NCBI GenBank assembly: GCA_963811105.1
Contig: CAWEPZ010000011.1
Location: 960,001 to 1,024,000 of the forward strand
Source of the DNA: Candidatus Bathyarchaeota archaeon
Lineage (GTDB): Archaea; Thermoproteota; Bathyarchaeia; Bathyarchaeales; Bathycorpusculaceae
Direction: 5' to 3'
DNA: 64,000 bases
Below are positions 23,784-61,827 of this stretch, piece after piece. Each line of letters opens with the position of its first letter. The first letter of the stretch is position 1. The notes beneath the pieces were generated by a model that saw only the letters and a list, made by a program, of their open reading frames with translations, was not told the DNA's origin and searched no databases. Position numbers and translations under genes: made by a program.

Positions 23784-24416
23784 TTAAAGCCCAGGTATGT
23801 TTGTATCTACAAGGTTTATGTCCATGTTGTAAGATTGTCCTTCAACTGTTGGAGAGGTCATCACCATTTTGATTGGCCATTGGATGCTGTTGTCAACGTA
23901 GTATGCTGCGCTGATTCCTTCGCTGCTATATTCGTAAACAGTGCATGTTCTTGTTCCAAGCTTCGGTATGGTTATTTGTGTGGTATATGTTTTGTCTAGT
24001 GTTAGGTTTTCTGGCTGGAAATTCATGTTTTCTCTGCTTACCCAGGTTGTGGTTGTATTTTCTGTTCCACCGAAAGGTGTTGACATGTTGTAGTAGGTTG
24101 ATAATTGCATGTGGGTTTGGTTTACATCAACAATTTCCATTCTTGCGTTGAAGGTGATACCCATTGATAAGATTTCAGCTTGGCCTGCATAGGTCGCATA
24201 AGCGCCCTTTTTGATCCAAGATTGTGGGCTGTCCTGATTATTAGTCGATCCGTTCTGATCGTTAGTTTGACTATTGGGTGATTGGTTACCTTCCCTCAAA
24301 AACGCCACAGTAGAGGCGAGTGCAGCAACTGCTATAATAGCTACTATTATGACAATGATTTTTTTGCTAAAAAAAGATTTTTTTGCGACTTGTTGATTGC
24401 TTTCCATTTCGGCCAC
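23784..24416 (-). CDS. Membrane-anchored hypothetical protein
   Basis: N-terminal TM (IIVIIVAIIAVAALA), N/Q/S linker and beta-rich C-domain. Confidence 0.75.
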   Translation of the reverse strand: MAEMESNQQVAKKSFFSKKIIVIIVAIIAVAALASTVAFLREGNQSPNSQTNDQNGSTNNQDSPQSWIKKGAYATYAGQAEILSMGITFNARMEIVDVNQTHMQLSTYYNMSTPFGGTENTTTTWVSRENMNFQPENLTLDKTYTTQITIPKLGTRTCTVYEYSSEGISAAYYVDNSIQWPIKMVMTSPTVEGQSYNMDINLVDTNIPGL

Positions 24417-24652
24417 TGTTTAATTGCACGAATTCTTAATAAACAATATATACCTTATGGAGACAGAGTAAGAACCAGAACTACAATCACCCACCGTACC
24501 CGCATCGTATTTGTTCGAGACTCACGACCAATTCTTTATTCGGTCGGTAAAACAACGACAAAAACAAATTGGGCTATTGTTCTCTTGATACTAAAATGGC
24601 ATTATTGGTTGTTGAAAGAATCCTTATATCCCATCCTCAGCAATAGGCTCGC

Positions 24653-25120
24653 ATGGCAGAACCAAAAAACGGCCGACCAATTTTCTTCCCCCAAAAATTG
24701 GTTCTACTTGGCAACCTCGCCCTTTTTGCATGGATTATTCTTGATGCAATTGCTTTTCTACTGTATGATTTAACGATTGGCATTGTATTTCTTGTGGCGA
24801 CGCTGATCTTAATTTATGGCTTACTGCATCTTCTAGGTTGTCTTCGTCCATGCTACAACTGCATAAAATGCACTCACGGCATGGGACGCTTAGCAGCATT
24901 ATACTTTGGCAAACGCATCTTCAAAGACTACAAATACAGCTACAAACTGCCCACAGCAATACTCTTCACTCTATATATTGGGGCGTTTCCAGCAACATTC
25001 GCACTTTACTCTGCCGCCATAGATTTCACAGTCATCAAAGCAGCGGTTTTTGTAATTCTTTTAGCATTTACAATCTATAGCGGCCTAACGTGGCGAACAA
25101 AAAAACGCTCGAACACATAG
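24653..25120 (+). CDS. 4-TM membrane protein with Cys cluster
   Basis: Hydrophobic helices around CLRPCYNCIKCTHGMG. Confidence 0.7.
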   Translation: MAEPKNGRPIFFPQKLVLLGNLALFAWIILDAIAFLLYDLTIGIVFLVATLILIYGLLHLLGCLRPCYNCIKCTHGMGRLAALYFGKRIFKDYKYSYKLPTAILFTLYIGAFPATFALYSAAIDFTVIKAAVFVILLAFTIYSGLTWRTKKRSNT

Positions 25121-34746: not shown

Positions 34747-37326
34747 CTATGCTTTTTTCCGTATCGCCATCATTATTAAAGCGCCGATTATAATGACTAT
34801 TATTGCTATTGCGATAACGCCTGCAACTATTGTCAGTGTATAGTCCGGTACTGTTATTGCTGGTCCTGTTGAGGTTGTTGCTGTGGGTGTTGTTTCTGCG
34901 CCAACTGAAACAGCAGTTGCTGCTGATGAGCTGCCGTAGGAGTCGTCCCCTGCAAATGTGGCAATTATCCTGTATGTGCCTTCAGTAGGCGGCGTCCAAG
35001 GCATTTCAAAGGTGCCGTAGTATGCACTTGTAGTTACGGTGCCGATTGTGATGGCGTTGTTGTTAGAGTCTATAGCTGTGAGTACAATTGGCACACCAGT
35101 CATCGTAGCATTGTGGTCAACACCGTCGATTGGATGCTGCATATGCAGATATTCCATCTCAGTAGCCATCGAATCCTTAGAGACGCATGGTGTGTTAGGC
35201 TGAGCAGGAGACAAATCAAGCACTGTGCCCTTTATCAAAACGCCTGTTCCTCGCGCAACCACTGTATCGGGTGCTGTCACTGTTGTAGCGGTTTTTCCTC
35301 TGCCGAAGACATACATGTATCCGTCATAAGAGTTTCCTGCAGTCATGTAGCCATCCGCAGTCGCGCCTGGAGCCATGCTGCCAGTAATGTTCCATATGCC
35401 CTGGCCTGTGGTTATGTTGATCGCGTGTAGCTTGTAGCCTCTGTAAATAGGTTGGTTTGGACTGTGCTCAGTGTTATAGGTGTATAGGACTCCGTCTGCG
35501 ATGACAGAAGTTCCGGTAAACCATGCATAGGAATCAACACCTGTTGCATCATTTGCATACGGTTGTTCATACGGGTATTCTGGCACGTATTGATACAGCC
35601 AGGCTACTTTTCCGTTGGTCCAGTTGTAAGCAGCGACTCCATCGTATTGATTTGCAATTATCATTCCTCCGTAGGATTGTACACCGTAGCAGCCGAAGCT
35701 TCCCCATGGCCAACTTGTCAAATCGCTTACCCATAGCTGTTTTCCAGTGTGGAGGTCCCAGCAATACCAATGTCCATCATTTAAGCGCACAGCGAATTTG
35801 CCGTGATCTGCGACTGAGGTGCTTGCACTGAAGAAGCCCCCTTCCCCCGTCGTTGTATCGGTTGTGATGTTGAATAGTAGTTGTCCTGTCGTCATGCTTG
35901 CTGCCATTATGCCTTGACCATATGCCACAACAAAGCCTGAGCCAACTCCTCCTGTACCCGGAGTAGTTATCGCATATGTGTTAACAGCAATAGCTGATTC
36001 ATAGTCAACAGTGCCTAAACTGCTGAATGGCCATGTAACGTTGCCCAGAACTTGAGGCCGCAGGTTGGTAGCACCTCCGAATCCAACGTCTCCTGTTATA
36101 GTCCAGTTGATAAGTCTATATTGAGTGCCAATAGTCTGTACTGTAAAGAATACAGGCCAACCGTCGGGTGTTTGCGCGTAGAATGTGCCGCTCGTGAATG
36201 GAGAAATTGAGATGTTGGCGATTACTGTTCCAAGCCACGGGTCATACCATATCAGTCGACTACTTCCCACGTACATAAGTCTCACAGACAATCCTGAATC
36301 TTCGGCGCTAGCGCCCGCGACAGTCACAGAAGTCCTTGTAATATAATTAATCATTGTTGGCACCTGGGTGACATTTAATTGGTCCCAATAAACTTGCCCA
36401 GTTTGAAGGTCGTAGCATTCCCAAACAGATTGTGCGTGGCCGTCTATCATTTTAGTCATGGTTTGATAGCATCTTCCGTCATAAATTATCGATGGTGTTG
36501 CTCCCCTGCCCGACAAGGATGTCAGCCCCATTGTTCCACCAATTACACCAGCTATAGCGTCTTGCCGCATCCAAACTACGTGTGCAGTTTTAGGTCCTTG
36601 AACATAAGGAGTGAACAAATAGTTGCTCATGTAGGTGTTTGTGTCTGCTGGCCAGCTTGGGCCGCCTCCAACAATGCCTGTAGCAGGATAGTTGCCCAAT
36701 ATCGACCACCATTCCCTGTTTTCAGGTGACACCGGTCTTGTCCAGTAGTCCGTCGGAAGAGGTGAACCTGGCCAACTTTGAGCAAGCGTATTGGTTACAG
36801 TTATAGTATATGGTCCGTCACTGCTTGGTTTGTAGTATACTGAATTGGTAAAGGTCGTGTTGGTTCCAAACTGGAATGATGCTTCGGTCGTGTTGTAAAC
36901 TCCTGCAGGGAAGTAGGCACCGAGGAAGTCAAATTTGATTGTCCAATTGCCAAGCTGATCCGGTACGTAATTGAACCATGCTGATACATCTCCAGGATAG
37001 GAGTTCAGTGGACCGATAGTATCTTTGGTACCGTCTGGCTTTGTGAATGTCACTACGTAAGCATTTTTCATGTATCTGACGACGTGAACTGGAGGTTGAA
37101 GCCAAAGGTTAACAATTACATTTTGTCCAAGCCCAATGGCATGCGGGTTGAAACTCAAGTGAGCGATTGTCTGGAATGATTCATCTGGAGTAACGCCTGT
37201 TGGTAATGGTATTGATCCGTTATCCTGTAGTGGTAAGCTTTGAGCTTGAATAATAGATGGTGTTGTCAACGCAAATAAAGATATCAAGAAAATAGCAATT
37301 ATAGTTTTCTTTGCTTTTCCAAACAT
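34747..37326 (-). CDS. Large PQQ-like beta-propeller cell-surface protein (paralog 1)
   Basis: Signal peptide, LPTDYWTRP..NREW, WDLHTGKQLW blades, EHSP..RG, PAQPNTPCVS..MEYLHMQ and C-terminal TM with RKK. Confidence 0.9.
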   Translation of the reverse strand: MFGKAKKTIIAIFLISLFALTTPSIIQAQSLPLQDNGSIPLPTGVTPDESFQTIAHLSFNPHAIGLGQNVIVNLWLQPPVHVVRYMKNAYVVTFTKPDGTKDTIGPLNSYPGDVSAWFNYVPDQLGNWTIKFDFLGAYFPAGVYNTTEASFQFGTNTTFTNSVYYKPSSDGPYTITVTNTLAQSWPGSPLPTDYWTRPVSPENREWWSILGNYPATGIVGGGPSWPADTNTYMSNYLFTPYVQGPKTAHVVWMRQDAIAGVIGGTMGLTSLSGRGATPSIIYDGRCYQTMTKMIDGHAQSVWECYDLQTGQVYWDQLNVTQVPTMINYITRTSVTVAGASAEDSGLSVRLMYVGSSRLIWYDPWLGTVIANISISPFTSGTFYAQTPDGWPVFFTVQTIGTQYRLINWTITGDVGFGGATNLRPQVLGNVTWPFSSLGTVDYESAIAVNTYAITTPGTGGVGSGFVVAYGQGIMAASMTTGQLLFNITTDTTTGEGGFFSASTSVADHGKFAVRLNDGHWYCWDLHTGKQLWVSDLTSWPWGSFGCYGVQSYGGMIIANQYDGVAAYNWTNGKVAWLYQYVPEYPYEQPYANDATGVDSYAWFTGTSVIADGVLYTYNTEHSPNQPIYRGYKLHAINITTGQGIWNITGSMAPGATADGYMTAGNSYDGYMYVFGRGKTATTVTAPDTVVARGTGVLIKGTVLDLSPAQPNTPCVSKDSMATEMEYLHMQHPIDGVDHNATMTGVPIVLTAIDSNNNAITIGTVTTSAYYGTFEMPWTPPTEGTYRIIATFAGDDSYGSSSAATAVSVGAETTPTATTSTGPAITVPDYTLTIVAGVIAIAIIVIIIGALIMMAIRKKA

Positions 37327-40861: not shown

Positions 40862-42361
40862 ATGACCGCCAACAAAATTCTAGGAAAAACTTTAATAATT
40901 TATCAGTTTAAGACATTCAAGGTGGTTTCTTTTTCAGTGCGTAAAATGAGCAAAAAACAACCTAATCAACTTAATCCACTTGCATTTAAAAAACACCCCT
41001 CTGAGCAATTGGACCACCAAAAAATTGCCCAATTAATACTTTCTCCGTTCATCCACTTGTTCAACATTAATGAATCGACGAAGTGTCTTTTCAATTCTTT
41101 AACTCTAAAGAAAGTGTACTTAACCAATGATAATTACACTAAGCTTTTAATAGATCTAAGTATGGGAAAACGTAGTAGAGACGTCAAAAGTTTAATCGAC
41201 TTGAAGTTTATAGTGCCTCTAGGCTTTGATGCGGAAAAAGTGTTTGACAGCGTCGCAAACAGCTTGCTTAGAAAGAAACCTTCGACCAACCTTGCGTACA
41301 TTTTGGTAACTGACTTCTGCAACTTCAGATGCGGTTACTGCTTCATAGAAAACTCTCTAAAGGGTCCTAGCATAGCAATGTCCAAGGATTTGGCAGATAA
41401 AGTCATTAACGTTTTGATCAACGAAGCAAAGCAAGTCCCAGAATATAGAGTTACATTTTATGGAGGAGAACCCCTAAGCATCAGCGAAATAGTCTTCTAC
41501 ATCATCAAAAAACTTGAGCAAGCATCTAAGGACAAATTCAAATTTTCTTGCGTTACAAACGGAAGTCTAGTAACCGAAGATTTAGCTAGAAAACTTAAAC
41601 AACACAACGTTACCGTAGGATTATCGCTAGACGGATGGGCCAACATTGACAAAAACCGTGTTTTTACCAATGGAAAAGAAACCTTTTACTCAGCACTTAA
41701 AGCGTTAGCTCTCCTAAAAGAAGCCGAGGTAAATGTTGGAATATCATGCACAATTACAAAACAGAACTACAAATACGCAGAGGAAATAGTTGAATTTATC
41801 CAAAAATTGGGAATCAGAACCATTGGTTTTAATTTGTTAACTAGACTCCAAGAGCCAAGTGAATTTGAGGTGCCAGACCCAAAACAACTCGCGCACCACC
41901 TCTTTGAAGCGTACTTAAAAGCAAACGAATTGCAAATGTTTGAAGATCGCATAGGCAATAGACGAGCAAACTATTTTTTCAAAGAAATATTTCATTTGTA
42001 CGATTGCCCCGCGTTTGGTCAACTAATATTCTTTTCGCCAGCTGGAACAGTGGGACCTTGCCATGCGTTCTATCCTTCAGGAAAACATCAAATTCCAATC
42101 AAAGATAATCTGAAAGTCCAAGAAGAACCATTGTTTTACAAATGGCTGGAAATTGGCACACTAAAGAATAAAGATTGCATGAGGTGTCCGGCCCTTGGAA
42201 TCTGCGGCGGAGGCTGCGCTTACGATATTTACGTTAAGACCGGTCAGCTTGGCATTAAAGAAGACTACTTCTGCGCTTTCCAGAATGAAATACTCAAGCT
42301 CCTGCTATCTTACAATTTCCTGATAAAACCTCAAAATAAACTTGGAAAAACGAAAAGTTGA
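40862..42361 (+). CDS. Radical SAM/SPASM-domain peptide maturase (likely start ATG 40946)
   Basis: CNFRCGYC, FYGGEP, TNG and SLDG core motifs. Seven-Cys SPASM: CPAF(x)G-TVGP-C ... CMRCPALGICGGGC ... YFC. N-terminal ~100-aa extension, possibly an RRE. Confidence 0.92.
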   Translation: MTANKILGKTLIIYQFKTFKVVSFSVRKMSKKQPNQLNPLAFKKHPSEQLDHQKIAQLILSPFIHLFNINESTKCLFNSLTLKKVYLTNDNYTKLLIDLSMGKRSRDVKSLIDLKFIVPLGFDAEKVFDSVANSLLRKKPSTNLAYILVTDFCNFRCGYCFIENSLKGPSIAMSKDLADKVINVLINEAKQVPEYRVTFYGGEPLSISEIVFYIIKKLEQASKDKFKFSCVTNGSLVTEDLARKLKQHNVTVGLSLDGWANIDKNRVFTNGKETFYSALKALALLKEAEVNVGISCTITKQNYKYAEEIVEFIQKLGIRTIGFNLLTRLQEPSEFEVPDPKQLAHHLFEAYLKANELQMFEDRIGNRRANYFFKEIFHLYDCPAFGQLIFFSPAGTVGPCHAFYPSGKHQIPIKDNLKVQEEPLFYKWLEIGTLKNKDCMRCPALGICGGGCAYDIYVKTGQLGIKEDYFCAFQNEILKLLLSYNFLIKPQNKLGKTKS

Positions 42362-42555
42362 AAGATTCACCCGTCTAAACACCAAAAAGCCCATAAAAAG
42401 CCCTTAGCCAAAAGAATCTAAGCAAACAATTGCTAATCAACAATTCAATAAATGAAAAAAAGATACAGACACATCTGACAGTTAACTTCACCCCAGATTG
42501 CCTGTACAATAAATATAAATAATTGACACTTCATACAACAATGTAGTGATTATTT

Positions 42556-43014
42556 TTGTCAAAAAATAAATCAAATCCTATAGCGCCCTCCAAAAACCCA
42601 TCTATCGCTCTATCAACAAAAAAATTGACCACAGCACAAAGCAAACGTTTACCAACAATCTTGGCACAAATACCACCTATCGAAAAACTGAATCCGGCCA
42701 TGTATGCAAAGCTGCAGTCAACTATACATGATACCGTAGCAAAAGCTTTGCCGGAATATCAGCAATGGATAAGCAAAACTATTGCATCGGATGGCCAGAC
42801 TCCGACTCCAGTGTGTAGCTCATGCGGAAACGACTGCCCAACACCACTTTGCAGTTCATGTGGAAACGATTGCCCCACACCTCTATGTAGCTCATGCGGA
42901 AACGACTGCCCAACACCATCAGCAACTAGAAAAATTGAAGACATGGTCAATGTGGCTGTCAACCAGGCAATGACCACGGCAATTCGTCAAGCTTTGGAAC
43001 AACAATTCAAATAA
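42556..43014 (+). CDS. Putative RiPP precursor with three tandem Cys-rich cores flanked by helical leader and follower
   Basis: TPVCSSCGNDCP TPLCSSCGNDCP TPLCSSCGNDCP; located between two radical SAM genes. Confidence 0.8.
   Translation: MSKNKSNPIAPSKNPSIALSTKKLTTAQSKRLPTILAQIPPIEKLNPAMYAKLQSTIHDTVAKALPEYQQWISKTIASDGQTPTPVCSSCGNDCPTPLCSSCGNDCPTPLCSSCGNDCPTPSATRKIEDMVNVAVNQAMTTAIRQALEQQFK
42805..42918 (+). repeat. 36-bp x3 coding repeat of the precursor cores
   Basis: Units start at 42805, 42841 and 42877. Differences are almost all synonymous (TGT/TGC, AGC/AGT, GAC/GAT, CCA/CCC/CCT). Confidence 0.95.
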
Positions 43015-44918: not shown

Positions 44919-45098
44919 ACGAAGTTTCTTGTAAAGAGAATTTCTCCTTTTGCTTTTTTGTCGCTAAAGATGGTGATAGTTAAGGCAAAACGTACAGGAG
45001 ATTTCTGTTAACCACGTTTTTCAAGAGTCTATTAACAATTTTGCAAATCCTCATAAACATAAATAGCGGTACTTCATAAAAATAGAGTGCGATTATTT

Positions 45099-46272
45099 TT
45101 GTCAAAAGATAAATCCGTAAACAAAGCCCTCTCTAAAAAGTCTACAAGAACTGTTCCTAAGAAAAAATCAGATTCAGCTGGTTCAAAAAAAAGATTAACC
45201 AAGAAACAAAATGAACGCCCACATACACTTTTTGAAAAAAATCAACATTTTGAAAAATTGGATCCCGAATCTTATGCGAAACTGCAATCAACAATACATG
45301 AAGTCGTTGAAAAAACGATGCCCGAATACAAAGAATGGCTAAATTCTGCATTTGGCGAAAAAATTATTCCCGATGATTGTTCCAATGCCCGCCCAACACT
45401 TATCCAAAGGTGCCGCGTCTGTCCAAAAAATTGACGATATTGTAGTTGCTGCTTTCAACAAAGCTATGAAAGCAGTACGTCAAGCTTCGGAAGAAACTGA
45501 GCAAACGGAAATTATGGAAAAATGGTTCAAAAAAAAATTTTTTGACGACGTTTCTGACATACGACCTGAAAGCAGAAACTATTACAAACATTGCGTACAC
45601 AATTTCGTTACTCAATTTTTCTCCAAAGAAAAAATAGCTGGAAAAAGAATCCTCGACTTCGGATGTGGACCAGGATACTATTCCACGATTTTGGCCCAAC
45701 GCGGAGCAGACGTAACTGGAATTGACAGAAGTGCATTTCTTATTTACAAAGCAAACGAACTCAAACAAAAACTAGGACTTAAGAATATAGAGTTTTTTCA
45801 AGAAGATTTTCTTGATTTTGAGACAAATGCAAGGCCCAAAGAGTTTGATTATATCATAGCGATAGACACAATTGTGAGTTTTGACTTTTCCAGACAGAAG
45901 CATAACCATGAGGATTTCACTAAGGCATTGAGCAAAATCAGCAGAATTCTGAAAGATCAAGGTAGATTTTTTATAATTGAGGCGCATCCTTTTTTCGGTC
46001 AATTTGCTAAAGGAATAAAATTCTCAAGCGAAGGACATTTTCATGGTCGTTTATCTCATTATAAAATAGAATATAAGCGTAAAGATAATCCTAATCATTG
46101 GTTTACCCTTGACGAAATGACGAAGGCTCTTAATGAGAACTGTTTGGCAATTTGCAGGATTTATGAGCCTGATCCAAGTGTTGAATTGGAAAAAGAAAAC
46201 GCCCAATTATTCAAGTTTTTCCTGAAGTATCCACACATGATTGTATATGAAATATGCAAAGTGAGAAACTAA
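45099..46272 (+). CDS. Precursor-paralog scaffold fused (via a +1 frameshift near 45398) to a class I SAM methyltransferase
   Basis: ORF 45087-45434 carries the leader homolog EKLDPESYAKLQSTIHEVVEKTMPEYKEW. ORF 45352-46272 carries the follower homolog QKIDDIVVAAFNKAMKAVRQASEE, then ILDFGCGPG, VTGID, LKDQGRF and EAHP. Confidence 0.75.
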
Positions 46273-48055: not shown

Positions 48056-50698
48056 TTATCGTTTTCTGAGTATCAGAATGGCTGTTGCGACTGAGAGGAT
48101 AACTACGATTATTATTGCGATTACTCCGGCGACTATGGTCATTGTGTAGTCTGGTGTTACGGATTGTGAAGCTGCTTGAGAAGGTGCCAATGTTGCTGCT
48201 GGACTAACTGCTATTGCTGTTGCTGCTCCTGAACTGCCATATGAGTCGTCTCCTGCAAATGAGGCAACAATTTTGTATGTGCCTTCTGTTGGTGGGGTCC
48301 AAGCCATCTCAAATGTGCCGTAGTATGCGCTTGAAGTTACTGTTCCGATGTTGATGACTTTGCCAGATGAGTCTATAGCTGTTAGTGTTACTGGTATGCC
48401 AGTCATGGTAACGTTGTGGTACATTCCATCTATTGGAATTTGCATGTGTAGGTATTCCATTTGAGTCGACATTGAGTCTGCGGAAACGCATGGCGTACCT
48501 GGTTGGGCTGGTGATTGATCCATAACTGTTCCTCGTATTAGCACTTGGGTTCCCAATGGTGTAGCGGTGTCGGGTGCCGTCACTGTGGTTTGTGTTAAGC
48601 CTTTGCCAAAGACGTCTAGGTAGCCGTCGTATTCATCGAGGAATGCGAGGTAGCCGTCTGATATTGCGCCTTCGAAGTAGCGTGAGCCTGGTACTCCTTG
48701 ACCCATGGTTATATTCCATATGCCTGCGCCTGTGGTAGCGTTAATGCAGAAGAGTCTCCAGCCTCTTGTAATTGGCTCGCTTGGCGTATGTTCACAGTTG
48801 AAGGTGAAGAGTTTTCCATCAGCCACGTAGCCTGAGCTGTGCCAGGAATAGTTTCCGCCATATGGTGTTTCAAATGGAGGTGCGGGTGCTGTGAAGGTCC
48901 AATCGATCTTGCCTGTGATCCAGTTGATCGCGTGGACTCCTGCGTAGTCATTGTCGAATATGTATCCGTAAGCTGATTGCACATCGTAAGCTCCGAAGAC
49001 TCCCCATGGCCATTCTGACAGCGGGCTCGTCCAAACCAGGTTCCCAGTCTTTAAGTCCCAGCAATCCCAGTCGCCGCCTAACAAGCGGACAGCTGCTTTG
49101 CCGTGATCGACAACCATTGGGGTTCCAAAGGTTTGTCCCCAGCCTGAACTAGTGTCTGTGGTTTTGTTCCAGAGGAGTTGTCCAGTGTATATGTTTGCTG
49201 CTTGTATGAATATGCCAACGTTTACTCCTAAGCCGGCTGAACTGATTGCGCCTGTGGTGACAGCGATTCCTGATTCATAATCAACTGTTCCCAGACTGCT
49301 AAATGGCCAAGAAATGTTGCCCCATATTCTTGCGGTGAAATTGTCAACAACTGTTTGCGCGCCTCCGCCGTGAACTTGCTCAGAGCCTGCGTTATTTGCT
49401 ATGGTCCAGTTGATTAAACGGTAGGTGACAGATGATCCTGAGCCGATTGTTTGTATGCTCAAGACCCATGGGTCTGCGTAGAATGTGCCGGTAGATACTC
49501 CGGAGGGGACTCCTGTGAAGTTTGAAACAACTGTGCCAGTTAAGGGGTCGTACTTGATTACTCGACCTGAATTTGAGCCTGACGCTCCAGTTATCGCTAC
49601 AAAGTATACTGATTCGCCTACTCTTGCTTCTGCGCCTGGAACTTCTGCGCCGCCTCGCTCATAGGTGATTATGGTGGGTATTGTTTCTCCAGTGGCTACT
49701 GGGCGTTCCCAGTATATCTTGCCTGTTTGCAGATCATAGCATCTCCATTCGTTGACTGCGCTAACTGTAGTAGGGTATTGCCATGTGCCGTTGATGTATA
49801 CTGGTTGTGTGGGTTCGCTTATGACTTCATAGCATCTTCCTGAGTAGATGATGGTTGGGTATCCACTTCCCGTTAATCCTCCGGCTGTCCAAGAGAGTTG
49901 TCCTGCTGGTCCACCGATGAGTCCGGCGATGAATGTTGGTCTTTGCCAGACTATGTGTGCTGTGTTTGGTGCTTGGACGTAGGGTGTGAATCTGTAGTTG
50001 CTCATGTATTTGTTGGTGTTTGCTGGCCAGTAGGTGCTTCCTCCAACAACGCCTGTTGGAGGCCAATTGCCTAATATTGGCCACCATTCTCTGTTGAAGG
50101 ATTCAGCTGGTCGTGACCAGTAATCTGTTGGTAATGCTGCTGGAGGCCAAGATGCTACCGCGTTTTGTTGCACTGTTACTGATACTTGAGGTGTTGTTGC
50201 TGGTTTGTAGTAGGCTGAGTCTAGAAATGCAGAACCGGATGTTCCGTTTTCGACGACACTTCCTTGGAGGTAGTATCCTGCGGGGTAGTATTGACCTAGG
50301 AAGTTAAATTGGAATTTGTAGGTACCGGCTGTGTCTGGGGTGTAGGGGAACCATGCTGTTGAGTCGCCTGCGTAGGATGATATTGGGCCTACAGTGGTGG
50401 TTGTTCCATCTGGTTTAGTGATTGTGACTGTGAATGCGTTTACTAAGTCTCTGTTTATGTTGATTGGAGGTTGAAGCCAGATGTTTACAAGTAACTCTTG
50501 CCCAACTCCGATTGGGTTTGGAGTGACATCAAGATAAGCAGTAGGAGTCACAGTAATGCTTGCAGTTACTCCGGCTGGTAAAGGTCCTGCTACTGGTTGG
50601 CTTAATGCTTTTACTGTCATTTTTGTCGTGGTTGCTATTACAGAAGCCATCAAAATGATTATGATAATTGCAGTTATCTTTTCACGATTTATTTTCAT
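48056..50698 (-). CDS. Large PQQ-like beta-propeller cell-surface protein (paralog 2)
   Basis: Same architecture and motifs as 34747-37326 (LPTDYWSRP, NREWW, EHTP..RGW, MEYLHMQ). Confidence 0.9.
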   Translation of the reverse strand: MKINREKITAIIIIILMASVIATTTKMTVKALSQPVAGPLPAGVTASITVTPTAYLDVTPNPIGVGQELLVNIWLQPPININRDLVNAFTVTITKPDGTTTTVGPISSYAGDSTAWFPYTPDTAGTYKFQFNFLGQYYPAGYYLQGSVVENGTSGSAFLDSAYYKPATTPQVSVTVQQNAVASWPPAALPTDYWSRPAESFNREWWPILGNWPPTGVVGGSTYWPANTNKYMSNYRFTPYVQAPNTAHIVWQRPTFIAGLIGGPAGQLSWTAGGLTGSGYPTIIYSGRCYEVISEPTQPVYINGTWQYPTTVSAVNEWRCYDLQTGKIYWERPVATGETIPTIITYERGGAEVPGAEARVGESVYFVAITGASGSNSGRVIKYDPLTGTVVSNFTGVPSGVSTGTFYADPWVLSIQTIGSGSSVTYRLINWTIANNAGSEQVHGGGAQTVVDNFTARIWGNISWPFSSLGTVDYESGIAVTTGAISSAGLGVNVGIFIQAANIYTGQLLWNKTTDTSSGWGQTFGTPMVVDHGKAAVRLLGGDWDCWDLKTGNLVWTSPLSEWPWGVFGAYDVQSAYGYIFDNDYAGVHAINWITGKIDWTFTAPAPPFETPYGGNYSWHSSGYVADGKLFTFNCEHTPSEPITRGWRLFCINATTGAGIWNITMGQGVPGSRYFEGAISDGYLAFLDEYDGYLDVFGKGLTQTTVTAPDTATPLGTQVLIRGTVMDQSPAQPGTPCVSADSMSTQMEYLHMQIPIDGMYHNVTMTGIPVTLTAIDSSGKVINIGTVTSSAYYGTFEMAWTPPTEGTYKIVASFAGDDSYGSSGAATAIAVSPAATLAPSQAASQSVTPDYTMTIVAGVIAIIIVVILSVATAILILRKR

Positions 50699-50934: not shown

Positions 50935-51669
50935 TCACTGGATAGAGTCTCTTTGATTAAGCAGTTTTTGAATTTGCTGCAATATATCTTCAGACGAAGA
51001 AGCCTTGAAATGTGCAGGTTCGCGAACTCCCGGTCCGACTTTGGCGTACTTTGCTCCGATTTGTGTCATTCTCTGCGTTAGGCGTAGCTCGGGATATACT
51101 TCGTCTATTACTGACAGCAAGACGGCTTGCTCGGAAGATATGATCTGCCCACCTTCGAAAAACTGAGCAGGCTCGATTGCCGACCATATCATCTCTATCG
51201 TTTTCGCTGAAAGAGCCCCTTGCAACGGTTGATCAATTAGACTTGCAGCTTGATGCGCGGGTTCAATCCATTCATTTGAGAGTTTTAGTTTGAGCGCACT
51301 TAACCACAGCAGATAAATATTGAAAGTTCCTGCAACAACTGTAATCAGTTTCTCTTCATTGATGCCTTTGAGGACTGGCATGAGTTCACTCTCAAACACG
51401 GTACCTTTAAGGTTTTCAGCACCCAAGCTAACTGATTTGACCATTCCGCCATCTACTTCGATTTTGCAAGGCAAGGTGGAGGCAACAACAAAGCCAATTT
51501 GTTTGGATGCACGGTCAAAGGCTGCGTCTATCTTTGTCTGGTATTTCTCTTTAATCAACTGGTAAATCGCAAGCAGGTCTTCTCTGTATTTGATAATCTT
51601 CGGATGCGCGGGTTCCACCCAAGGTCTCTGCTTTCTCAGCATTGTTTCATCTATTCTTTTTTCATCCAA
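50935..51669 (-). CDS. Hypothetical protein with four EPAH/EPAQ motifs; putative substrate of the upstream B12 radical SAM
   Basis: WVEPAH (aa 17-22), WIEPAH (134-139), AIEPAQF (164-170) and VREPAHF (215-221). RBS GGGGTGA; 13 nt after the rSAM stop. Confidence 0.8.
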   Translation of the reverse strand: MDEKRIDETMLRKQRPWVEPAHPKIIKYREDLLAIYQLIKEKYQTKIDAAFDRASKQIGFVVASTLPCKIEVDGGMVKSVSLGAENLKGTVFESELMPVLKGINEEKLITVVAGTFNIYLLWLSALKLKLSNEWIEPAHQAASLIDQPLQGALSAKTIEMIWSAIEPAQFFEGGQIISSEQAVLLSVIDEVYPELRLTQRMTQIGAKYAKVGPGVREPAHFKASSSEDILQQIQKLLNQRDSIQ

Positions 51670-51682
51670 TTTTTCACCCCCT

Positions 51683-53461
51683 TCACAAATTTCTTATTCT
51701 CTTCTTGAATTCGTCATATGGAAGGTAGTTTTGTCCAATTGCAATCATGTTTAGTATCTCGTCAGGGTTCCTTCCTTGAAAAGAATATGAAGTTTCTAAT
51801 CCCACATTGGAACCAGCCGTTATCAAATTCGACGATTCCATAACATCTTCGTCATTCAGAATAGCCTGTGTATCTAATCCCCCGTTTCTATAAGCTTTTT
51901 CAAGGTAGTTGATTATCCGATCGCCTTTCACAAGCAGAACCGCACTTCTTCTGTCGATTCTCTGTCTCATTTCTCTTGCAAAACGATGAATTTTTAGCTC
52001 ATCCTCAACGTTGACCTCAGAGACAAAATCAAAAATACCAGACAATTCTTCAAATGTGTCCAGATTAGTCTCTTTTATGAAATTTCGAACCGCTGCCCTC
52101 AGGCTCTGCGAGAGAATTTCAGGATGGAAACGCCGAAGAATTTGATAGTAAAAATCAACCTGCATGTTAAAGTAGTGCAGACCATTGTCATTGAAATTCC
52201 TGTCGAAAAAGGCATAATTCGCGATCTTGTGGAATACTTCGACCTTTGGGTCTTTTATGCGGTAGTCAAATCCGAAATAGTCGCCGAGCAAGCGTCCCTG
52301 CGTGCGTAGTTTCTCTTCGAGCCCTGTTCCTGCGTAAGCTTCTGCCCGGCAGAAATTAAAGGGATTTTCTATATGGCGTTCCATAAAACGAAGGTTGATG
52401 AGTAAATCGTTCATGGTTGCATCGAGTTCAAACATCAAGAAGTTGAAAGCAACATGAACATCGAAGTCATTGAGAATCTGCAGCGCATTAAGAATGTCCC
52501 CGATTGTTTGTTTGCGGTTTAGGTTTCTCAAGCCGTTCTCAGAAGCATTTTCAACACCCAAGAATACTCGGAAAAGGCCAAGCTCATCAAGAACGGATAT
52601 AGATTCGCGGGTAATGCTGTCAGGTCGAGCCTTCACGGCGATTGCGATTTTTTCAACTCCATTTCTTTTCAGCTCGTCCCGTAATTCCTTGAAGCGTTGC
52701 AGGGTTTGCTGGTTGTCGGCAAGAAAGAAGTTGTCATCGTGGAAGTTGAAAATTCGAATGCCGTATTCAAAATAAAGTTGCTTCATCTCGGCAACGATGT
52801 TTTTTATGCTGCGGACTCTGAACTTCTTGCCTCCTTGGTGTTCATACCATGCGTTTATGCTACAGAAAGCACAGTTCCGCCAGCATCCCCTACTGCTCAG
52901 TATGCCCGCAATCGGCTTGTCGAAGTACTTGTTGAATGTTGTTCTTTTCGGAAATGGCAGTGCGTCCAGGTTTTCCTGCTTAATGCCAGGTGAACATCTT
53001 ATTGTTCCTTCAGTCCCCCTAAAAGCTAAGCCGGGAACATCTTCCAGTCTGTCCAAACTCTGAGCCAGCTTACAAAGCAGCAGTTCGCCTTCGCCCAGGC
53101 CGACCGAACTAAAAGCAGGAAAGTCCTTTAGCAGTCTTTCGTAGTTGAAAGAAGCAAAATGCCCTCCAGCAACTATATGTCCCTTGTAACCTGCGTCCCT
53201 TAGCCTCTGTGCCAGGCTGCAAAATTCTCTTGCTCTGCCTGTAAACACCATGGACAATGCCGTTATTTGCGGGTCTGTCTGAATGATTTTTTCTACTACT
53301 GAGGAAATCTCGGCTTGAGAGTTGAAAGGTACGATTTGTGTCTCTATGCCGACTTGCTCTAATGAAGATGCCATGTACCGAATGCCGATGTTTTCCTCTA
53401 ATTCTGCGCCAACAAGGGCAACTTTCACCTTATCCCCCCAATCAAAGTGTCTAAAGTGCAA
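51683..53461 (-). CDS. Cobalamin (B12)-binding radical SAM protein (likely start GTG 53428)
   Basis: ENIGIRY, AGGHFAS, GEGE, SSRGCWRNCAFC, FHDDNF, RPD and LGVE motifs; long C-terminal extension. Confidence 0.92.
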   Translation of the reverse strand: MHFRHFDWGDKVKVALVGAELEENIGIRYMASSLEQVGIETQIVPFNSQAEISSVVEKIIQTDPQITALSMVFTGRAREFCSLAQRLRDAGYKGHIVAGGHFASFNYERLLKDFPAFSSVGLGEGELLLCKLAQSLDRLEDVPGLAFRGTEGTIRCSPGIKQENLDALPFPKRTTFNKYFDKPIAGILSSRGCWRNCAFCSINAWYEHQGGKKFRVRSIKNIVAEMKQLYFEYGIRIFNFHDDNFFLADNQQTLQRFKELRDELKRNGVEKIAIAVKARPDSITRESISVLDELGLFRVFLGVENASENGLRNLNRKQTIGDILNALQILNDFDVHVAFNFLMFELDATMNDLLINLRFMERHIENPFNFCRAEAYAGTGLEEKLRTQGRLLGDYFGFDYRIKDPKVEVFHKIANYAFFDRNFNDNGLHYFNMQVDFYYQILRRFHPEILSQSLRAAVRNFIKETNLDTFEELSGIFDFVSEVNVEDELKIHRFAREMRQRIDRRSAVLLVKGDRIINYLEKAYRNGGLDTQAILNDEDVMESSNLITAGSNVGLETSYSFQGRNPDEILNMIAIGQNYLPYDEFKKRIRNL

Positions 53462-55345: not shown

Positions 55346-56775
55346 CAGTAGATGGAAAAGTAGTTTTTGGATATTGATGCTTTGTTTATCCTGTCGTAAC
55401 CGATTATCAAGCGGCAGGGTCTGAGGATTGCTCTTTCATTGCACAGTTTTATATCTTCAGACTTCTATAGCAAATTAACTGGCGGAGTTTAGGGTTCGAT
55501 CTACCCGGATCGGCTTCCTCGAATGCATCCAAGAATGCTTTAGTGTCGAGGTGGCCCTAACCCGCCAATGATAAAGCCTTCAAAGTGCACAGCCAAACGA
55601 GTCAACGTCAAAAGTGGTTTACCAAACTGTTTCTTTAGAGCTCTGCAGAGCAAAAAATTAGCGTAGTGCCAAACATTGTACAGTACCACAGAAGTCATTT
55701 GGTAAATTAGTCTAAGCTTATAGTTGGTGCTTGTAGTTTTAGCCTGGGCATTATCTTGCACACGATAACCCGTTTCTATACCCCACCTGCGCCTGTACTC
55801 AGAAGGAATAAACAATGGCAACTTAATTGCTAATGACCTTGGAAGGTTTGTTGCAAAACCAAAATAGAGGTCAGAAACATTCAGCTTCTTCTTTTTCGGC
55901 AACTGCTCAACTGACCGCTTGTAAAGATACAGGGTAAAGCAGATGCTTTTCCTTTTGTTGCCTAAAATGAAACGTTTAGCTGACTGCTTGTCATCATAAT
56001 TTAGCATCGCTTCTTTGACCGTATCATGCTTAACTGCTGGAATAATAAAATAGACCTCTAACCTCTTGAGCGTAGCTATGACGTCTATTGTGAAGAATGC
56101 TCGGTCAAGCAGTACAATGCTAATGTGTATGCCGCGTGCCCTCGCTTCAAAGATTAGTTTCTCAACGACCTCTGCTTTCTCACTGAACTGGTTAACAGTA
56201 CTAGAATAGACTGTAAGTCTTCTTCCCGCTTCAACAATGTCAATGCTAGCATATGTATAGCCCCAGGTCGTTCCATTCTCCTGTTTGCCACCTATCACGT
56301 TTTTAGCGTCGGGATCACCATAGAAGGGCTGCCTTGTATAGTCGATTGCAACCACCGCTTTTCTTCTAAAGAGGCAGTGGCTTCTTAGGATAAGGAGAAT
56401 CTGGTCGTTGGCTTGGATTAATGCATTGCGAATTTGCTTCTCCGCTAAGCGCTCTATTCTTCCTCTGAAGGTTCTTCCCGTGGGAACCTTGTTTGGTGTG
56501 TTGCATTTTTCTGAGAGGTCAGCTAAGCCACTTTCAGCGTAGCTTTGAGAAAGTGAGAGCTGGATTAGACATTGATTTATGTCGCTGCTGATGTAGAGGC
56601 TGTTTTTAGCTACTGGAAATTGAAGATATTCGTTAAGCAAGTTGGCTGTGAACTTGAAGACTTTGCTGGAAACCTTTCGCTCTTTTGATTTACGTTTTGC
56701 CGTCTGAACACAATATCTCAATTATACGCACTAAGATAATATTATCAAACGTTTAAGGTACTTTTCCATCTACTG
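55346..56775 (-). mobile_element. Complete insertion sequence, ISH3/IS4-like, 1430 bp
   Basis: Perfect 17-bp TIRs CAGTAGATGGAAAAGTA (55346-55362 and 56759-56775); 5-bp TSD ACTTT at 55341-55345 and 56776-56780. Confidence 0.95.
55540..56721 (-). CDS. DDE transposase, ISH3/IS4 family
   Basis: VAIDYT, LLDRAF and YRRRWGIETGYR (Y-REK-type motif). Confidence 0.92.
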   Translation of the reverse strand: MRYCVQTAKRKSKERKVSSKVFKFTANLLNEYLQFPVAKNSLYISSDINQCLIQLSLSQSYAESGLADLSEKCNTPNKVPTGRTFRGRIERLAEKQIRNALIQANDQILLILRSHCLFRRKAVVAIDYTRQPFYGDPDAKNVIGGKQENGTTWGYTYASIDIVEAGRRLTVYSSTVNQFSEKAEVVEKLIFEARARGIHISIVLLDRAFFTIDVIATLKRLEVYFIIPAVKHDTVKEAMLNYDDKQSAKRFILGNKRKSICFTLYLYKRSVEQLPKKKKLNVSDLYFGFATNLPRSLAIKLPLFIPSEYRRRWGIETGYRVQDNAQAKTTSTNYKLRLIYQMTSVVLYNVWHYANFLLCRALKKQFGKPLLTLTRLAVHFEGFIIGGLGPPRH

Positions 56776-56878: not shown

Positions 56879-59497
56879 ATGAAAAACAAATTTTCGACAA
56901 AACTGACAACAATCACTCTGATTCTATTGATGGCTTCAATTGCAGTATCAACAATTCCAATCCATCCAGTTCAAGCTCAAGAAGCATCGCACGGTGGTTC
57001 ACCTGGAGGAGGATATGAAGGACCAACAACAGTTCCAGCCGGTCAGACTGCTGACTACACGATTCAACCCATTGCTTTCCTGAGCGTTTCACCCGCCACA
57101 ATCGGTATCGGTCAAACGCTCCTGGTCAACGTGTGGATTACCTTCCCCTCAGGTGAGGGCAAATATATGGTAGGCTACACGGTGCACATCACTAAGCCAG
57201 ACGGTTCAACAGACGATGTTCCTCTGAAATCGTACGTCGCGGACGGTACAGCCTATTTCACCTACGTGCCTGATCAAACGGGTCAATGGACGTTCTTGTT
57301 CACTTTCGCAGGCGAATATTTCCCAGCAGGATACTATGTAAGCGGACAATACTCCACCAGCCGAACAGGCCAGTTTGCAAACGCGATTTTTAACCCTTCT
57401 GACTACGTTGCACCAGCCACTTCCCAAGTGAGAACTTTAACAGTGCAGAGCGATCTTGTTTCATCTTGGCAGTCACCGCTTCCAACAGACTACTGGACGC
57501 GCCCAATTGAACCGAACAACAGAGAGTGGTCTGCTATCGCAGGAAACTTCCCATTCACCGAAGATATAGGCAGTGCAGAAAGTTGGAGTGATGAATGGTA
57601 CGGTCCCTTCATCACGGCTCCAAATACACCACACATTGTCTGGTTCAACCAAGTAAACGTAGCAGGCATAACTGGAGGAGAAACCGGTCTACAATCCACG
57701 CTTAGTGGTCCCGGAACTCCCAGCGTTATCTATCAGGGAAGATGCTACCAGACCATGACCATTTCCATCAACGGCGTTCCAACGAGTTGCGCAGTATGCT
57801 ATAACCTGCAAACAGGAAAACAATACTACGCCATACCGGGCGGAATCACACCAACACGCATAGCCTACTGGCCACCTGCTGTTGCAGGCGCTACAGGAAC
57901 TGTTCCAGGCGAGGCAGCAGACATTGGTTGGACAATTGACCTCTTCACAATAAGCGGCAGCTTCCTAATCAAAATCAACCCAAACACAGGGGCAGTAAGC
58001 TCGAACATTACACTTCCATCTGGCTTAGGCACCGCTGACATGTTCTACAGGGACGGCTACTACTTGAGCTACCGATCAGTCAGCACCGATAACATGACCC
58101 CCGCCGCCAACGTAACGGTCGCTAGGTCTACAACAGGATACCTAGTAAACTGGACAGAACAAGGCACTTCAACCAACTTCACAACAAGGATACGGAGCAA
58201 CATAACCGTAACAATACCAAACAGCTTGCGAACACTCTATGAAGTTGGTGCCTACGGAGCATTAGGCGCATATGACCCAGACACAGGCATAACCGTCATC
58301 CAGTCCAGGTTCATCTACGGAGGCTTCTACGGATCAAACTTCTGGGCAGTAAACCTAGTAACGGGACAAACGATATGGAACGTAACGACACCTGTTTCCG
58401 CGATCGAAGACGCTTACAGACCTACCAACGCATGGTGCAGACATGGAAGATACATAGCTGAAATGGAGCGAGGATACTTACAAGCATACGATGAATTCAC
58501 CGGTAAATTGCTCTGGACATCATCACCTGGAATTGACGCCTCGATGGGTGATTACCCATGGGGAGAATTTTACCAATACGATGAAGCAGCATACCAGGGC
58601 GTAATCTACGATGTGCAATACACAGGCATCTTCGCTTTCGATGAAACCAACGGCAACATACTCTGGCACTACGTTGATCCAGCCATCCCATTCGAAACTC
58701 CATATAACAGCGCTAATGGTTCAATCCCTTGCTATTCAATCTCAAGCATCAGAATTGCTGACGGAAAAATCTACGCGATGAACAGTGAACACTCACCCTC
58801 ACTACCAGCAACTCGAGGCTGGGGATTAATCTGCCTTAACGTCACCACCGGGGAGAAACTTTGGAAAATTAGCGGTACACAAATGAGCGCAGGTCCTGCA
58901 TCAGATGGCTACATGGTAACCAGCAGCAGCTATGACGGAACACAATACGTGCTAGGCAAAGGTCAAAGCCAAACAACAGTAACAGCACCAGTAAACACAG
59001 TAGCAAAAGACGGTAGCGTGCTAATCCAAGGCACAGTCTTAGACATGTCTCCCGCCCAGCCAAACACAGCATGCATCTCAGACAACACAATTGATACATG
59101 GATGGATTACCTGCATATGCAAATGCCAGTAGATGGACTATACCACAACATAACCGTCACAGGCGTACCAGTACTACTCGTAGCAACAGACTCTAACAAC
59201 AACAACATCAACGTAGGCACAGCAACAAGCGACACAACCGGCAGCTACCAAATCGCATGGACACCACCACACGAAGGCCTATACAAGATCACAGCAATCT
59301 TTTCAGGTACAAACTCATACGGAAGCTCTATTGCAGCAACAGGCCTATTAGTCGGACCAGCACCAACACCTATATCAACCCCAGTGGCAGCGTTACCGAT
59401 TGATACCACAAATACTATTGTAGGCATGGGCATCGCCATAATCATAGTAATAGTGATTATTGGCGCGTTAATCCTCATTCTCATGCGACGAAAGTAA
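56879..59497 (+). CDS. Large PQQ-like beta-propeller cell-surface protein (paralog 3)
   Basis: Same family motifs (LPTDYWTRP, NREW, EHSP..RGW, MDYLHMQ) and C-terminal TM with RRK. Confidence 0.9.
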   Translation: MKNKFSTKLTTITLILLMASIAVSTIPIHPVQAQEASHGGSPGGGYEGPTTVPAGQTADYTIQPIAFLSVSPATIGIGQTLLVNVWITFPSGEGKYMVGYTVHITKPDGSTDDVPLKSYVADGTAYFTYVPDQTGQWTFLFTFAGEYFPAGYYVSGQYSTSRTGQFANAIFNPSDYVAPATSQVRTLTVQSDLVSSWQSPLPTDYWTRPIEPNNREWSAIAGNFPFTEDIGSAESWSDEWYGPFITAPNTPHIVWFNQVNVAGITGGETGLQSTLSGPGTPSVIYQGRCYQTMTISINGVPTSCAVCYNLQTGKQYYAIPGGITPTRIAYWPPAVAGATGTVPGEAADIGWTIDLFTISGSFLIKINPNTGAVSSNITLPSGLGTADMFYRDGYYLSYRSVSTDNMTPAANVTVARSTTGYLVNWTEQGTSTNFTTRIRSNITVTIPNSLRTLYEVGAYGALGAYDPDTGITVIQSRFIYGGFYGSNFWAVNLVTGQTIWNVTTPVSAIEDAYRPTNAWCRHGRYIAEMERGYLQAYDEFTGKLLWTSSPGIDASMGDYPWGEFYQYDEAAYQGVIYDVQYTGIFAFDETNGNILWHYVDPAIPFETPYNSANGSIPCYSISSIRIADGKIYAMNSEHSPSLPATRGWGLICLNVTTGEKLWKISGTQMSAGPASDGYMVTSSSYDGTQYVLGKGQSQTTVTAPVNTVAKDGSVLIQGTVLDMSPAQPNTACISDNTIDTWMDYLHMQMPVDGLYHNITVTGVPVLLVATDSNNNNINVGTATSDTTGSYQIAWTPPHEGLYKITAIFSGTNSYGSSIAATGLLVGPAPTPISTPVAALPIDTTNTIVGMGIAIIIVIVIIGALILILMRRK

Positions 59498-60284: not shown

Positions 60285-61617
60285 CTATGTGTCTTGTGGT
60301 ATGTATACTGCGTATCCTCTTGGGGGTGCATAGAATTCGCCCCGCCCATCTGGTTGTGTCCACTTTTCAATTGGGGCTTCAACATTGTTTTGATGGCTTC
60401 CCCAAGTAACAGCTTTGAACTTCACATTTTTCCATTTTGTTTTGACCCATTTTCCACTCCAAGCGTTTCCAAAGTTGTTGAGGACAAAAATTAAGCCAGT
60501 TTGAGTTGGTGTGCCATTTCTTTGCATGATGTAGACGTTGTCATCAGCATATAGTATTGTGGTTGTGCCTCCAGCGTTTTGCTCATGCATTTTTACTGGG
60601 CCGCTATTCCGTTTTCGCTGTTTTCTTTGCCCAGTTGAAAGTTGAAGAAATCTTGCCAAAAAACACAAGGGTAGCCTTCATGGGTTAGAATAAAAGCGTA
60701 GGCGAGCATTTTATCGTTGACAATGGGATTGCTGAGTGCTATGTCGTGATTTTCTACAAATGTAACAGCTTCTGAAGGTCTGTCTTTTACGAGGGTTCCA
60801 GATATTGCAAGGTTTGTTAAACTGTAACCATAAGAATCACAAACACCTTTCAATCTGTCTCGCAGCGGAAAATCGAAGGCGCCTACAGGGTTATCTGACC
60901 ACTCGTTAGTCGCATTAAGCCAATCATTGATAACGCGGTCACTATCCCAACATTCCCCGACCCCATAAAGCTTAAAATACTGTCCATTCCGTTTTATTCT
61001 TAACTCCTGGATTGAGGTAGCTGTCCAACTTCCATAACCTTTGACAAAGTCGAAGCGAAAACCATCAAAACCTATTGTCTCTACAAGCCAACGGACAATT
61101 TTTAATATGGGTCCATAAACGTAGGGGTTTCGGTGGCACAGATCAGGCATGTCTCCGAACGTTTCACCATCCCATGTTTCATAACTTGAAGGGTGGAAGC
61201 ATTCCCAGTTATGCTTGAACTCTTGACTTTTAGGGTTGAATTTTGTCCACCGCACCATTTGGTCTATTGGGTTAGTCTCTTCTTTGTCGCCGCCGCTGTT
61301 ATGGTTAATGACAAGGTCAGCGTATGCTTGCAAGCCAGCTTCATGAGCAGCTGCGATTAATGAAACTAACTCATCTTTTGAACCAAACCACGTGCGTATT
61401 GAGCCCTTTTGATCAAACTCACCCAAGTCGTAATAATCATACGTCATATCCCATTGAAGGATTGTTAGCTGCTTTACTCGTCAGGAGGCAACCAAAGACC
61501 TGTAAACCCAACCTCTTTCAATGTTGGAATTTTACTCTTAACATGTTCCCACCAATCATAATCTCTTTTTTCCAACTTGGGACAATTCCAATAGAATGCT
61601 TGAAACATTACGCCCAT
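60285..61617 (-). pseudogene. GH13 alpha-amylase (AmyA-like) with ~3 frameshifts
   Basis: MGVMFQAFYW from 61617, WLPP, MGYD, YDYYDLG, DLVINH, DGFRFD, GECW, FVENHD and THEGYPCVFW. Frame breaks occur at ~61480, ~61443 and ~60597. Confidence 0.85.
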
Positions 61618-61827
61618 AATTTTCCACATCCATTAACCAATTTCTTCTAACTTACAAAAACATGATCGAGAAAACGCTGATGCACACTTTAGAAAACTTC
61701 ATAAGCTAAATTCTTACTTAAACCTCAACAAAATTGGATTTGCTTCCTTGATCGATAACACTTTCTTTTCAAGTAATCATCTGATAATTGGCAAGGTTTC
61801 CTATCCTGCCATTTCCACTAGCCATTC

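Follow-up and report, generated by a model that had tools for sequence, protein, structure and literature searches.

The DNA analysed here is a 64,000-nucleotide stretch (hereafter the window) of a contig from a Candidatus Bathyarchaeota archaeon. Between positions 40862 and 46272 of its forward strand lie, in this order, genes for a radical SAM maturase, a repeat-bearing precursor and a B12-binding radical SAM enzyme, followed by two overlapping open reading frames (ORFs) that together encode precursor-like helices and a methyltransferase:

40862..42361, + strand: radical SAM/SPASM peptide maturase, with an N-terminal extension of ~130 aa before the part that aligns with CteB
42556..43014, + strand: precursor of 152 aa, with basic tail, leader helices, three CSSCGNDCPTP core repeats and follower helix
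43329..44918, + strand: B12-binding radical SAM enzyme, with ApyD and TIGR03975-type matches that lie below cut-offs
45087-45434, + strand: frame-0 ORF, a paralogue of the precursor tail and leader
45352-46272, + strand: +1-frame ORF, overlapping the frame-0 ORF and encoding a follower homologue and a methyltransferase

The maturase aligns with CteB (5wgg/5why) from residue 131 (E=3.9e-22), and its N-terminal extension may be a leader-binding domain. Its best NCBIfam matches remain below the family cut-offs (FibroRumin, 179.6 bits versus 400; PapB, 149.8 bits versus 340). The core of the precursor is encoded by three 36-nt DNA repeats (D1), and structure prediction places helices before, and one helix after, a disordered core region. 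The B12-binding radical SAM enzyme is probably a C-methyltransferase. No family in Pfam or NCBIfam matched either the precursor or the precursor-like N-terminal domain encoded by the last two ORFs, which is referred to below as the scaffold. The two ORFs can be divided into the following parts, using P0110, the closest orthologue among the proteins retrieved in this study, as the reference:

45071..45115, + strand: promoter-proximal block around the start (ACTTCATA...GATTATTTTTGTCAAAAGATAAATC), also present at the precursor gene, with the conserved TTG start at 45096 inside it
45096..45404, + strand: frame-0 part of the fusion gene, ending at the last in-frame codon, ATC; 98/107 residues identical to P0110, counting the junction residue
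about 45264-45350, + strand: leader-like helix, modelled by AF2 as helix 60-88 of P0110
45372-45398, + strand: core relic DDCSNARPT, the only relic present
45404..45405, + strand: CC dinucleotide with one surplus base (ATC[C]AAA) by comparison with P0110, the frame break
45405..45434, + strand: out-of-frame tail QRCRVCPKN followed by a stop, without homology and a by-product of the break
45406..45513, + strand: follower-like helix in the +1 frame (KGAASVQKIDDIVVAAFNKAMKAVRQASEETEQTEI), matching the precursor follower with E=1e-4; helix 110-150 in the model
45514..46272, + strand: SAM-dependent methyltransferase domain of class I (Rossmann), which begins at MEKWF, includes DFGCGPG and runs to the stop

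Both halves are related to the precursor. The frame-0 ORF, in which a basic N-terminal tail precedes the leader helix, is 39 % identical to the 152-aa precursor over 100 aa (BLASTP, E=5e-20), and the first 48 residues of the +1-frame ORF resemble the precursor follower helix (13/28 identical), a homology that is also visible as DNA repeats D3 and D9. Leader and follower thus both place the scaffold in the precursor family, and a joint profile finds both kinds of protein. The two start regions, 42528-42572 and 45071-45115, share 80 % identity over 45 nt (repeat family D2) with a 25-nt near-identical core, GATTATTTTTGTCAAAA.ATAAATC. Repeats of the CSSCGNDCPTP type are absent from the scaffold, which retains the single degenerate relic; relative to the DDCSNDCPT of a closely related locus (L017), the window shows GAC>GCC and TGC>CGC. 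The scaffold descends from its paralogue, the precursor at 42556..43014. A first-pass annotation, made by reading the sequence, had described a start region mirroring that of the precursor, a leader homologue in one frame with follower and methyltransferase in the +1 frame, and DDCSNARPT as the sole core relic with TGC changed to CGC. Each of these descriptions agrees with the repeat, BLASTP and profile results.

Translation of both genes appears to begin at a shared element. All anchorable precursor and fusion genes in the related loci described below (32/32) use TTG inside TTATTTTTG, and joining the two frames of the window gives a product of 391 aa from the corresponding TTG at 45096, or of 394 aa from GTG at 45087. 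The conserved TTATTTTTG start is preceded by ACTTCATA and an ATAAAyATAAATA box, both in the window (42528-42572, 45071-45115) and in L001-L019. This combination probably represents an archaeal promoter common to both kinds of gene, with a leader that is short or missing.

The enzyme at the end of the gene is a bona fide class I SAM methyltransferase. Its domain matches Methyltransf_31 with 83.9 bits against a cut-off of 27 (E=1.2e-23), also exceeds the cut-offs of Methyltransf_25, _23, _11 and _12, and carries DFGCGPG as its glycine-rich SAM-binding motif. The AF2 model of P0110 shows a Rossmann-like alternation of strands and helices with core pLDDT above 90. Upstream of this core, the model has a disordered tail followed by helix 60-88, then a loop of low confidence and helix 110-150, which runs into the Rossmann domain; the two scaffold helices are predicted with moderate confidence (pLDDT about 57-69). 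The best 30 matches of a Foldseek comparison with the PDB are generic class I methyltransferases, among which CypM, a RiPP N-terminal methyltransferase, ranks 22nd. An ESM Atlas look-up of the scaffold gave no usable match.

Intact orthologues and related loci

We compared the +1-frame ORF with 5.8 billion proteins and recovered 109 homologue clusters, 42 of which are represented by intact fusions of 358-402 aa comprising tail, leader helix, loop, follower helix and methyltransferase. P0110 (394 aa) clusters at 90 % with P0001 (299 aa), the protein annotated for the window itself. Its residues 1-106 are 92 % identical to the frame-0 ORF, with complete identity over residues 63-106, and from residue 107 onward it shows 7 mismatches in 288 positions of the +1-frame ORF (about 98 % identical). 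P0110 reads without interruption across the junction, ..DDCSNARPTLI-KGAASV.. (PTLIKGAASVQKID; ..IIPDDCSNARPTLIKGAASVQKID..). Because this intact protein carries the same DDCSNARPT relic as the window, the substitutions in the relic are unrelated to the frame break.

By the measure of these relatives, window positions 45096-46272 are a single gene, an ortholog of a conserved Bathyarchaeota fusion of ~360-400 aa, and the two ORFs should be annotated as one. The first-pass annotation had suspected that the ORFs are halves of one fusion and had proposed a search for intact leader-follower-methyltransferase fusions elsewhere. Natural examples occur in 42/109 clusters and 14/20 related loci, and P0110 is 92-98 % identical to both halves. 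Its expectation that one base would join the frames into a protein of ~390 aa is borne out in length, but the base belongs at ATC[C]AAA, 6 nt downstream of the site it had named, CCA ACA (C) TTA TCC. It had also pointed out that reads confirming the frameshift, together with homologous methyltransferases starting at MEKWFKKK with no scaffold, would make the upstream part a decayed duplicate; close homologues carry the scaffold, and only distant ones (45-65 % identity) lack it.

A genome scan identified 20 related loci, all from Candidatus Bathyarchaeota archaeon MAGs. The order radical SAM/SPASM gene, precursor, fusion gene is kept in 20/20, the fusion is a single ORF in 14/20, and the gene for the B12-binding radical SAM enzyme lies between precursor and fusion gene in 18/20 as well as in the window. 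Since L014 and L017 lack this enzyme, it appears to be dispensable for a core set composed of maturase, precursor and fusion. A second precursor copy, whole or broken, is situated just upstream of the fusion gene in 8/20 loci. Over 8.7 kb, the DNA of locus L017 and that of the window share 94.9 % identity. In some genomes the whole cluster is present in two or three paralogous copies (L002, L007 and L009 in one MAG; L014 and L015 on one contig).

When a profile built from fusion N-domains and precursors was run against 1.84 billion representatives, only 18 scaffold-containing clusters (50 % identity) came up, and the sole fused partner was the methyltransferase. The scaffold is therefore a narrow family that is fused to this methyltransferase only. 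Distant homologues of the enzyme (45-65 % identity) carry no scaffold, and six of them have their start three residues ahead of the conserved MEKWF tryptophan, which indicates that the enzyme family is older and acquired the scaffold later. An NJ tree (Biopython, 100 bootstraps) groups 18/18 fusion N-domains in one clade that includes no precursors, with a bootstrap value of only 55; the L012 precursor has a fusion-like leader.

Two further proteins depart from the common architecture. P0122 (130 aa), known from its protein sequence, is a stand-alone core-less scaffold with a precursor-like end (..AIRKASFQF) and may represent an unfused intermediate or a natural two-piece form. In the annotation of P0063 (412 aa), which is distantly related to the methyltransferase and lacks the scaffold, the enzyme is preceded in the same chain by the C-terminal SPASM cysteine motifs. 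Either the methyltransferase directly follows a radical SAM/SPASM gene in other lineages too, or this protein is another read-through artefact. Among the papers listed by our searches of the literature on Bathyarchaeota/Bathyarchaeia RiPPs, radical SAM enzymes, ranthipeptides and archaeal RiPP clusters, none describes the scaffold-methyltransferase family; those listed on archaeal RiPP clusters are surveys.

Origin of the frame break

The reading frame is broken at CTT ATC [C] AAA GGT, where comparison with P0110 makes either C45404 or C45405 the surplus base. This base is most likely an indel in the assembly consensus and otherwise a very recent strain-specific mutation, with an artefact roughly twice as probable as a real mutation. 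The break is neither programmed nor a sign of decay, and it is probably trivial.

These two explanations are favoured because every gene of the related clusters can be found with a frame break and because the amylase gene of the window, described below, is broken as well. Breaks affect SPASM genes in 7/20 loci, B12-binding radical SAM genes in 5/18, precursors in 5 loci and fusion genes in 6/20, such that 13/20 loci contain a break of some kind and each gene type of the cluster is hit. Among the database proteins, short forms have intact relatives at at least 90 % identity (P0012/P0114 and P0015/P0115), and several fragments share the out-of-frame ending '..NSSSF..'. The contigs, which reach 2.47 Mb, suggest long-read assemblies.

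A real mutation that the organism tolerates would leave a core-less scaffold of ~112 aa and a follower-methyltransferase protein that restarts at ATG 45373 or at MEKWF (45514), with the pair cooperating or the methyltransferase acting alone. Independent breaks in the same inter-helix loop are one argument for this scenario: L004 has its own +1 break a few codons upstream, L017 is shifted by a net +2, P0075 starts with a frame-shifted loop, and 2/5 single-break cases fall in this loop, which accounts for only about 5 % of the gene length. In addition, GATGAT supplies the +1-frame ATG at 45373, and tolerated real breaks could for this reason give a working two-piece form. Neither half is decayed in the window, the surplus base lies outside any long homopolymer (CC, then AAA), and the remaining genes of the window's cluster are intact. 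The existence of P0122 and of distant methyltransferases that work without a scaffold, including the six that start close to MEKWF, would also fit a divided gene. Set against these points are the intactness of P0110 at 92-98 % identity, the abundance of breaks in the related assemblies and in the window amylase, the lack of an obvious ribosome-binding motif before 45373, and the fact that L017 is broken elsewhere in the gene too. We therefore regard a tolerated mutation as possible, with odds clearly below even.

Programmed +1 ribosomal frameshifting could in principle join the two frames. The direction of the shift is appropriate, and the CTT codon just before the break may resemble known CUU-type +1 slippery sites. 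However, the codon that follows CTT is the common ATC, the frame is uninterrupted in the closest orthologue as well as in 41 further cluster representatives, L004 is broken at another place and L017 by a net +2, and the site has no conservation whatsoever. With neither break nor slippery site conserved among orthologues (42 in-frame representatives), this mechanism is extremely improbable and was rejected. An assembly indel, or failing that a very recent mutation, remains the preferred account of the surplus base.

Constraint on the scaffold and its possible role

Selection was estimated from 13 intact fusion genes of related loci. The dN/dS ratio is 0.13 for the methyltransferase, 0.16 for the leader helix, 0.30 for the loop, 0.41 for the basic tail and 0.51 for the follower helix. 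Thirteen alignment columns are invariant across fusions and precursors, and the leader residues P56, Y59, A60, L62, Q63, P75, Y77 and W80 are shared without exception by fusions and true precursors. Synonymous divergence rises from a dS of about 0.33 in the 5' third of the fusion genes, which encodes tail and leader, to 0.61 in the methyltransferase part; possible causes of the lower value are nucleotide-level constraint or gene conversion with precursor genes.

These values bear directly on the proposal that the upstream ORF is a functionless, decaying duplicate of the precursor and that only the methyltransferase matters. Lost cores, a broken frame in the window and distant homologues without a scaffold speak for it. 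Purifying selection on the leader helix as strong as that on the enzyme contradicts this reading, as do the retention of the fusion in 42 cluster representatives and 14/20 loci and the unchanged residues 63-106 of the frame-0 ORF, and we consider it to have almost no chance of being correct. The first-pass annotation had presented the gene as a duplicated precursor that lost its cores. The paralogy is upheld, but the cores were lost early, in the family as a whole, and not at this locus.

The core relic behaves differently from the leader helix. Among orthologues it appears as DYSNGS, DSSNGS, DASNGS or DFSKDS, in addition to the DDCSNARPT of the window; it is nearly absent from P0022 and P0035, and in most orthologues the loop is only a few residues long. 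Because the leader helix is constrained and the relic is not, a docking or leader-mimic role is indicated for the scaffold, and not that of a cis substrate. A cis substrate, as in fused borosins, would mean that the methyltransferase or the radical SAM enzymes modify the loop of the fusion itself, and some long-loop orthologues do keep core-like segments (DDCSNNCPTP, DDCSSDCPTS or DDCSNDCPT). The near loss of the relic in P0022 and P0035, the variability of its cysteines, the shrunken loop of most orthologues and the absence of special constraint on this loop make such a role, which the first-pass annotation had offered as one option, very unlikely. Docking or leader mimicry is, from the pattern of sequence conservation, a plausible function for the scaffold.

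We infer the following scheme for the binding partner and the substrate of the fusion. The ~140 N-terminal residues of the fusion, with tail, leader helix, one degenerate core remnant and follower helix, are a paralogue of the precursor. This core-less scaffold would act as a recognition module that keeps the contacts made by the leader of the true precursor, and its partner could be the leader-binding part of the radical SAM/SPASM maturase or the helical scaffold of the precursor itself. This would bring the methyltransferase to the true precursor and let it methylate the Cys-rich core repeats there.

Taken as a whole, our preferred reading is that of a single precursor-scaffold/methyltransferase fusion gene in which the break is a consensus indel or a recent mutation and the scaffold is a recognition module; we give it a probability of roughly 0.6. 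A bolder version, which we regard as rather improbable, proposes a natural 'leader in cis' enzyme that arose when a duplicated precursor lost its cores and became fused to a class I methyltransferase. Bearing the recognition scaffold of its own substrate, this enzyme would exploit the leader-recognition machinery or bind the true precursor through helix-to-helix pairing. Its loop would in addition suffer real, recurrent single-base breaks (the window, L004, L017 and P0075) that toggle the protein between a one-piece form and a two-piece form restarting at the GATGAT ATG.

RiPP enzymes normally find their substrates via a leader peptide on the substrate, and chemists fuse leaders to enzymes to remove the leader requirement. 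If the recognition role is correct, evolution would have found the same trick of fusing leader to enzyme, and the fusion would provide a simple, testable model for recruiting tailoring enzymes that have no recognition domain. In that case it would also point to a previously undescribed family of modified Cys-repeat peptides or proteins in archaea. We view the conserved precursor-scaffold/methyltransferase family as a new version of a known idea, with docking as a plausible mechanism.

Comparison with known systems and other features of the window

Borosin methyltransferases have a tetrapyrrole-methylase-type fold, and OphMA is an example of a fused borosin. According to two preprints, split and fused methyltransferase-precursor architectures coexist in this group (bioRxiv 10.1101/2021.12.24.474128, 10.1101/2024.01.09.574750). 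Like the present gene, fused borosins belong to RiPP-type clusters and combine a methyltransferase with sequence derived from a precursor in a single polypeptide. The borosin core is, however, C-terminal and itself the substrate, whereas the scaffold described here is N-terminal and its core degenerate. The fusion matches only class I methyltransferase families, with no match to a domain of the tetrapyrrole-methylase type, and its relic has neither conservation nor constraint of its own; it does not qualify as a borosin. The resemblance to borosin fusions noted in the first-pass annotation is accordingly conceptual. That annotation was right to distinguish the methyltransferase class, but the parallel does not extend to the position of the scaffold or to the presence of a core.

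The closest working parallel appears to be that of engineered leader-in-cis RiPP enzymes, for which passages of PMC13003496 describe a leader sequence appended to a tailoring enzyme. Those proteins are laboratory constructs, whereas the present fusion would be a natural, conserved counterpart; it adds a follower helix and a basic tail to the leader.

Sharing of a leader between two proteins of one cluster is also found in the Crp system of Methanococcus voltae. The relevant passages of PMC13692751 describe an archaeal radical SAM/SPASM enzyme that puts thioether (ranthionine) crosslinks on a Cys-rich repeat protein, report that CrpB has the N-terminal 47 residues of CrpA and suggest that CrpB may aid substrate engagement; they also propose domain-domain contacts beyond the RRE-leader contact. 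The relation between CrpA and CrpB in that description recalls the relation between precursor and fusion scaffold. The immediate cluster as depicted there, however, consists of three proteins (CrpA, CrpB and CrpC), none of them a methyltransferase, and CrpB is another Cys-rich protein rather than an enzyme fusion. CrpC belongs to TIGR04463, which the window maturase matches only below the cut-off (E=1.3e-25), and the precursors of the two systems are unrelated in sequence.

Systems of the ranthipeptide/SCIFF type, with PapB, CteB and the FibroRumin maturase as members, are the nearest to the window maturase and likewise have cores whose short repeats contain many Cys, Asp and Asn residues. They differ in that the NCBIfam scores of the window maturase fall far short of the family cut-offs and in that the window precursor, which is known from sequence, has helices on both sides of its core.

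A GH13 alpha-amylase gene at 60285-61629 on the reverse strand is divided among three ORFs in different frames and thus contains at least two more breaks:

61629-61474, - strand: amylase N-terminus
61447-60593, - strand: amylase middle ORF, matching residues 65-320 of 1mwo_A
60668-60285, - strand: third amylase ORF, matching residues 330-416 of 1mwo_A

A second candidate for a split amylase gene, 21724-23337 plus 23157-23609, has a weak Pfam match (E=7.7e-4), and its second ORF is without a PDB match. The overlap of ORFs 24282-24773 and 24653-25120 does not reflect a frameshift, as a single frame, 24647-25114, accounts for the match to the L001 homologue. Scanning the window for Rfam families and tRNAs gave no matches.

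The cluster is flanked by three paralogous proteins of ~860-880 aa with a PQQ-like beta-propeller (34747-37326 and 48056-50698 on the reverse strand, 56879-59497 on the forward strand). The first two have an additional match to an Ig-like domain, and the C-terminal end of 48056-50698 is hydrophobic; the three are probably surface proteins. A DDE transposase gene (PF01609) is located nearby at 55540-56721 on the reverse strand. Finally, a second B12-binding radical SAM enzyme is encoded at 51683-53461 on the reverse strand, immediately upstream of an ORF of 244 aa (50935-51669, reverse strand) that has no Pfam match and contains four copies of an xEPAH/EPAQ motif. The two genes may constitute another maturase/substrate pair, and a homolog of this radical SAM enzyme is also present in L017.
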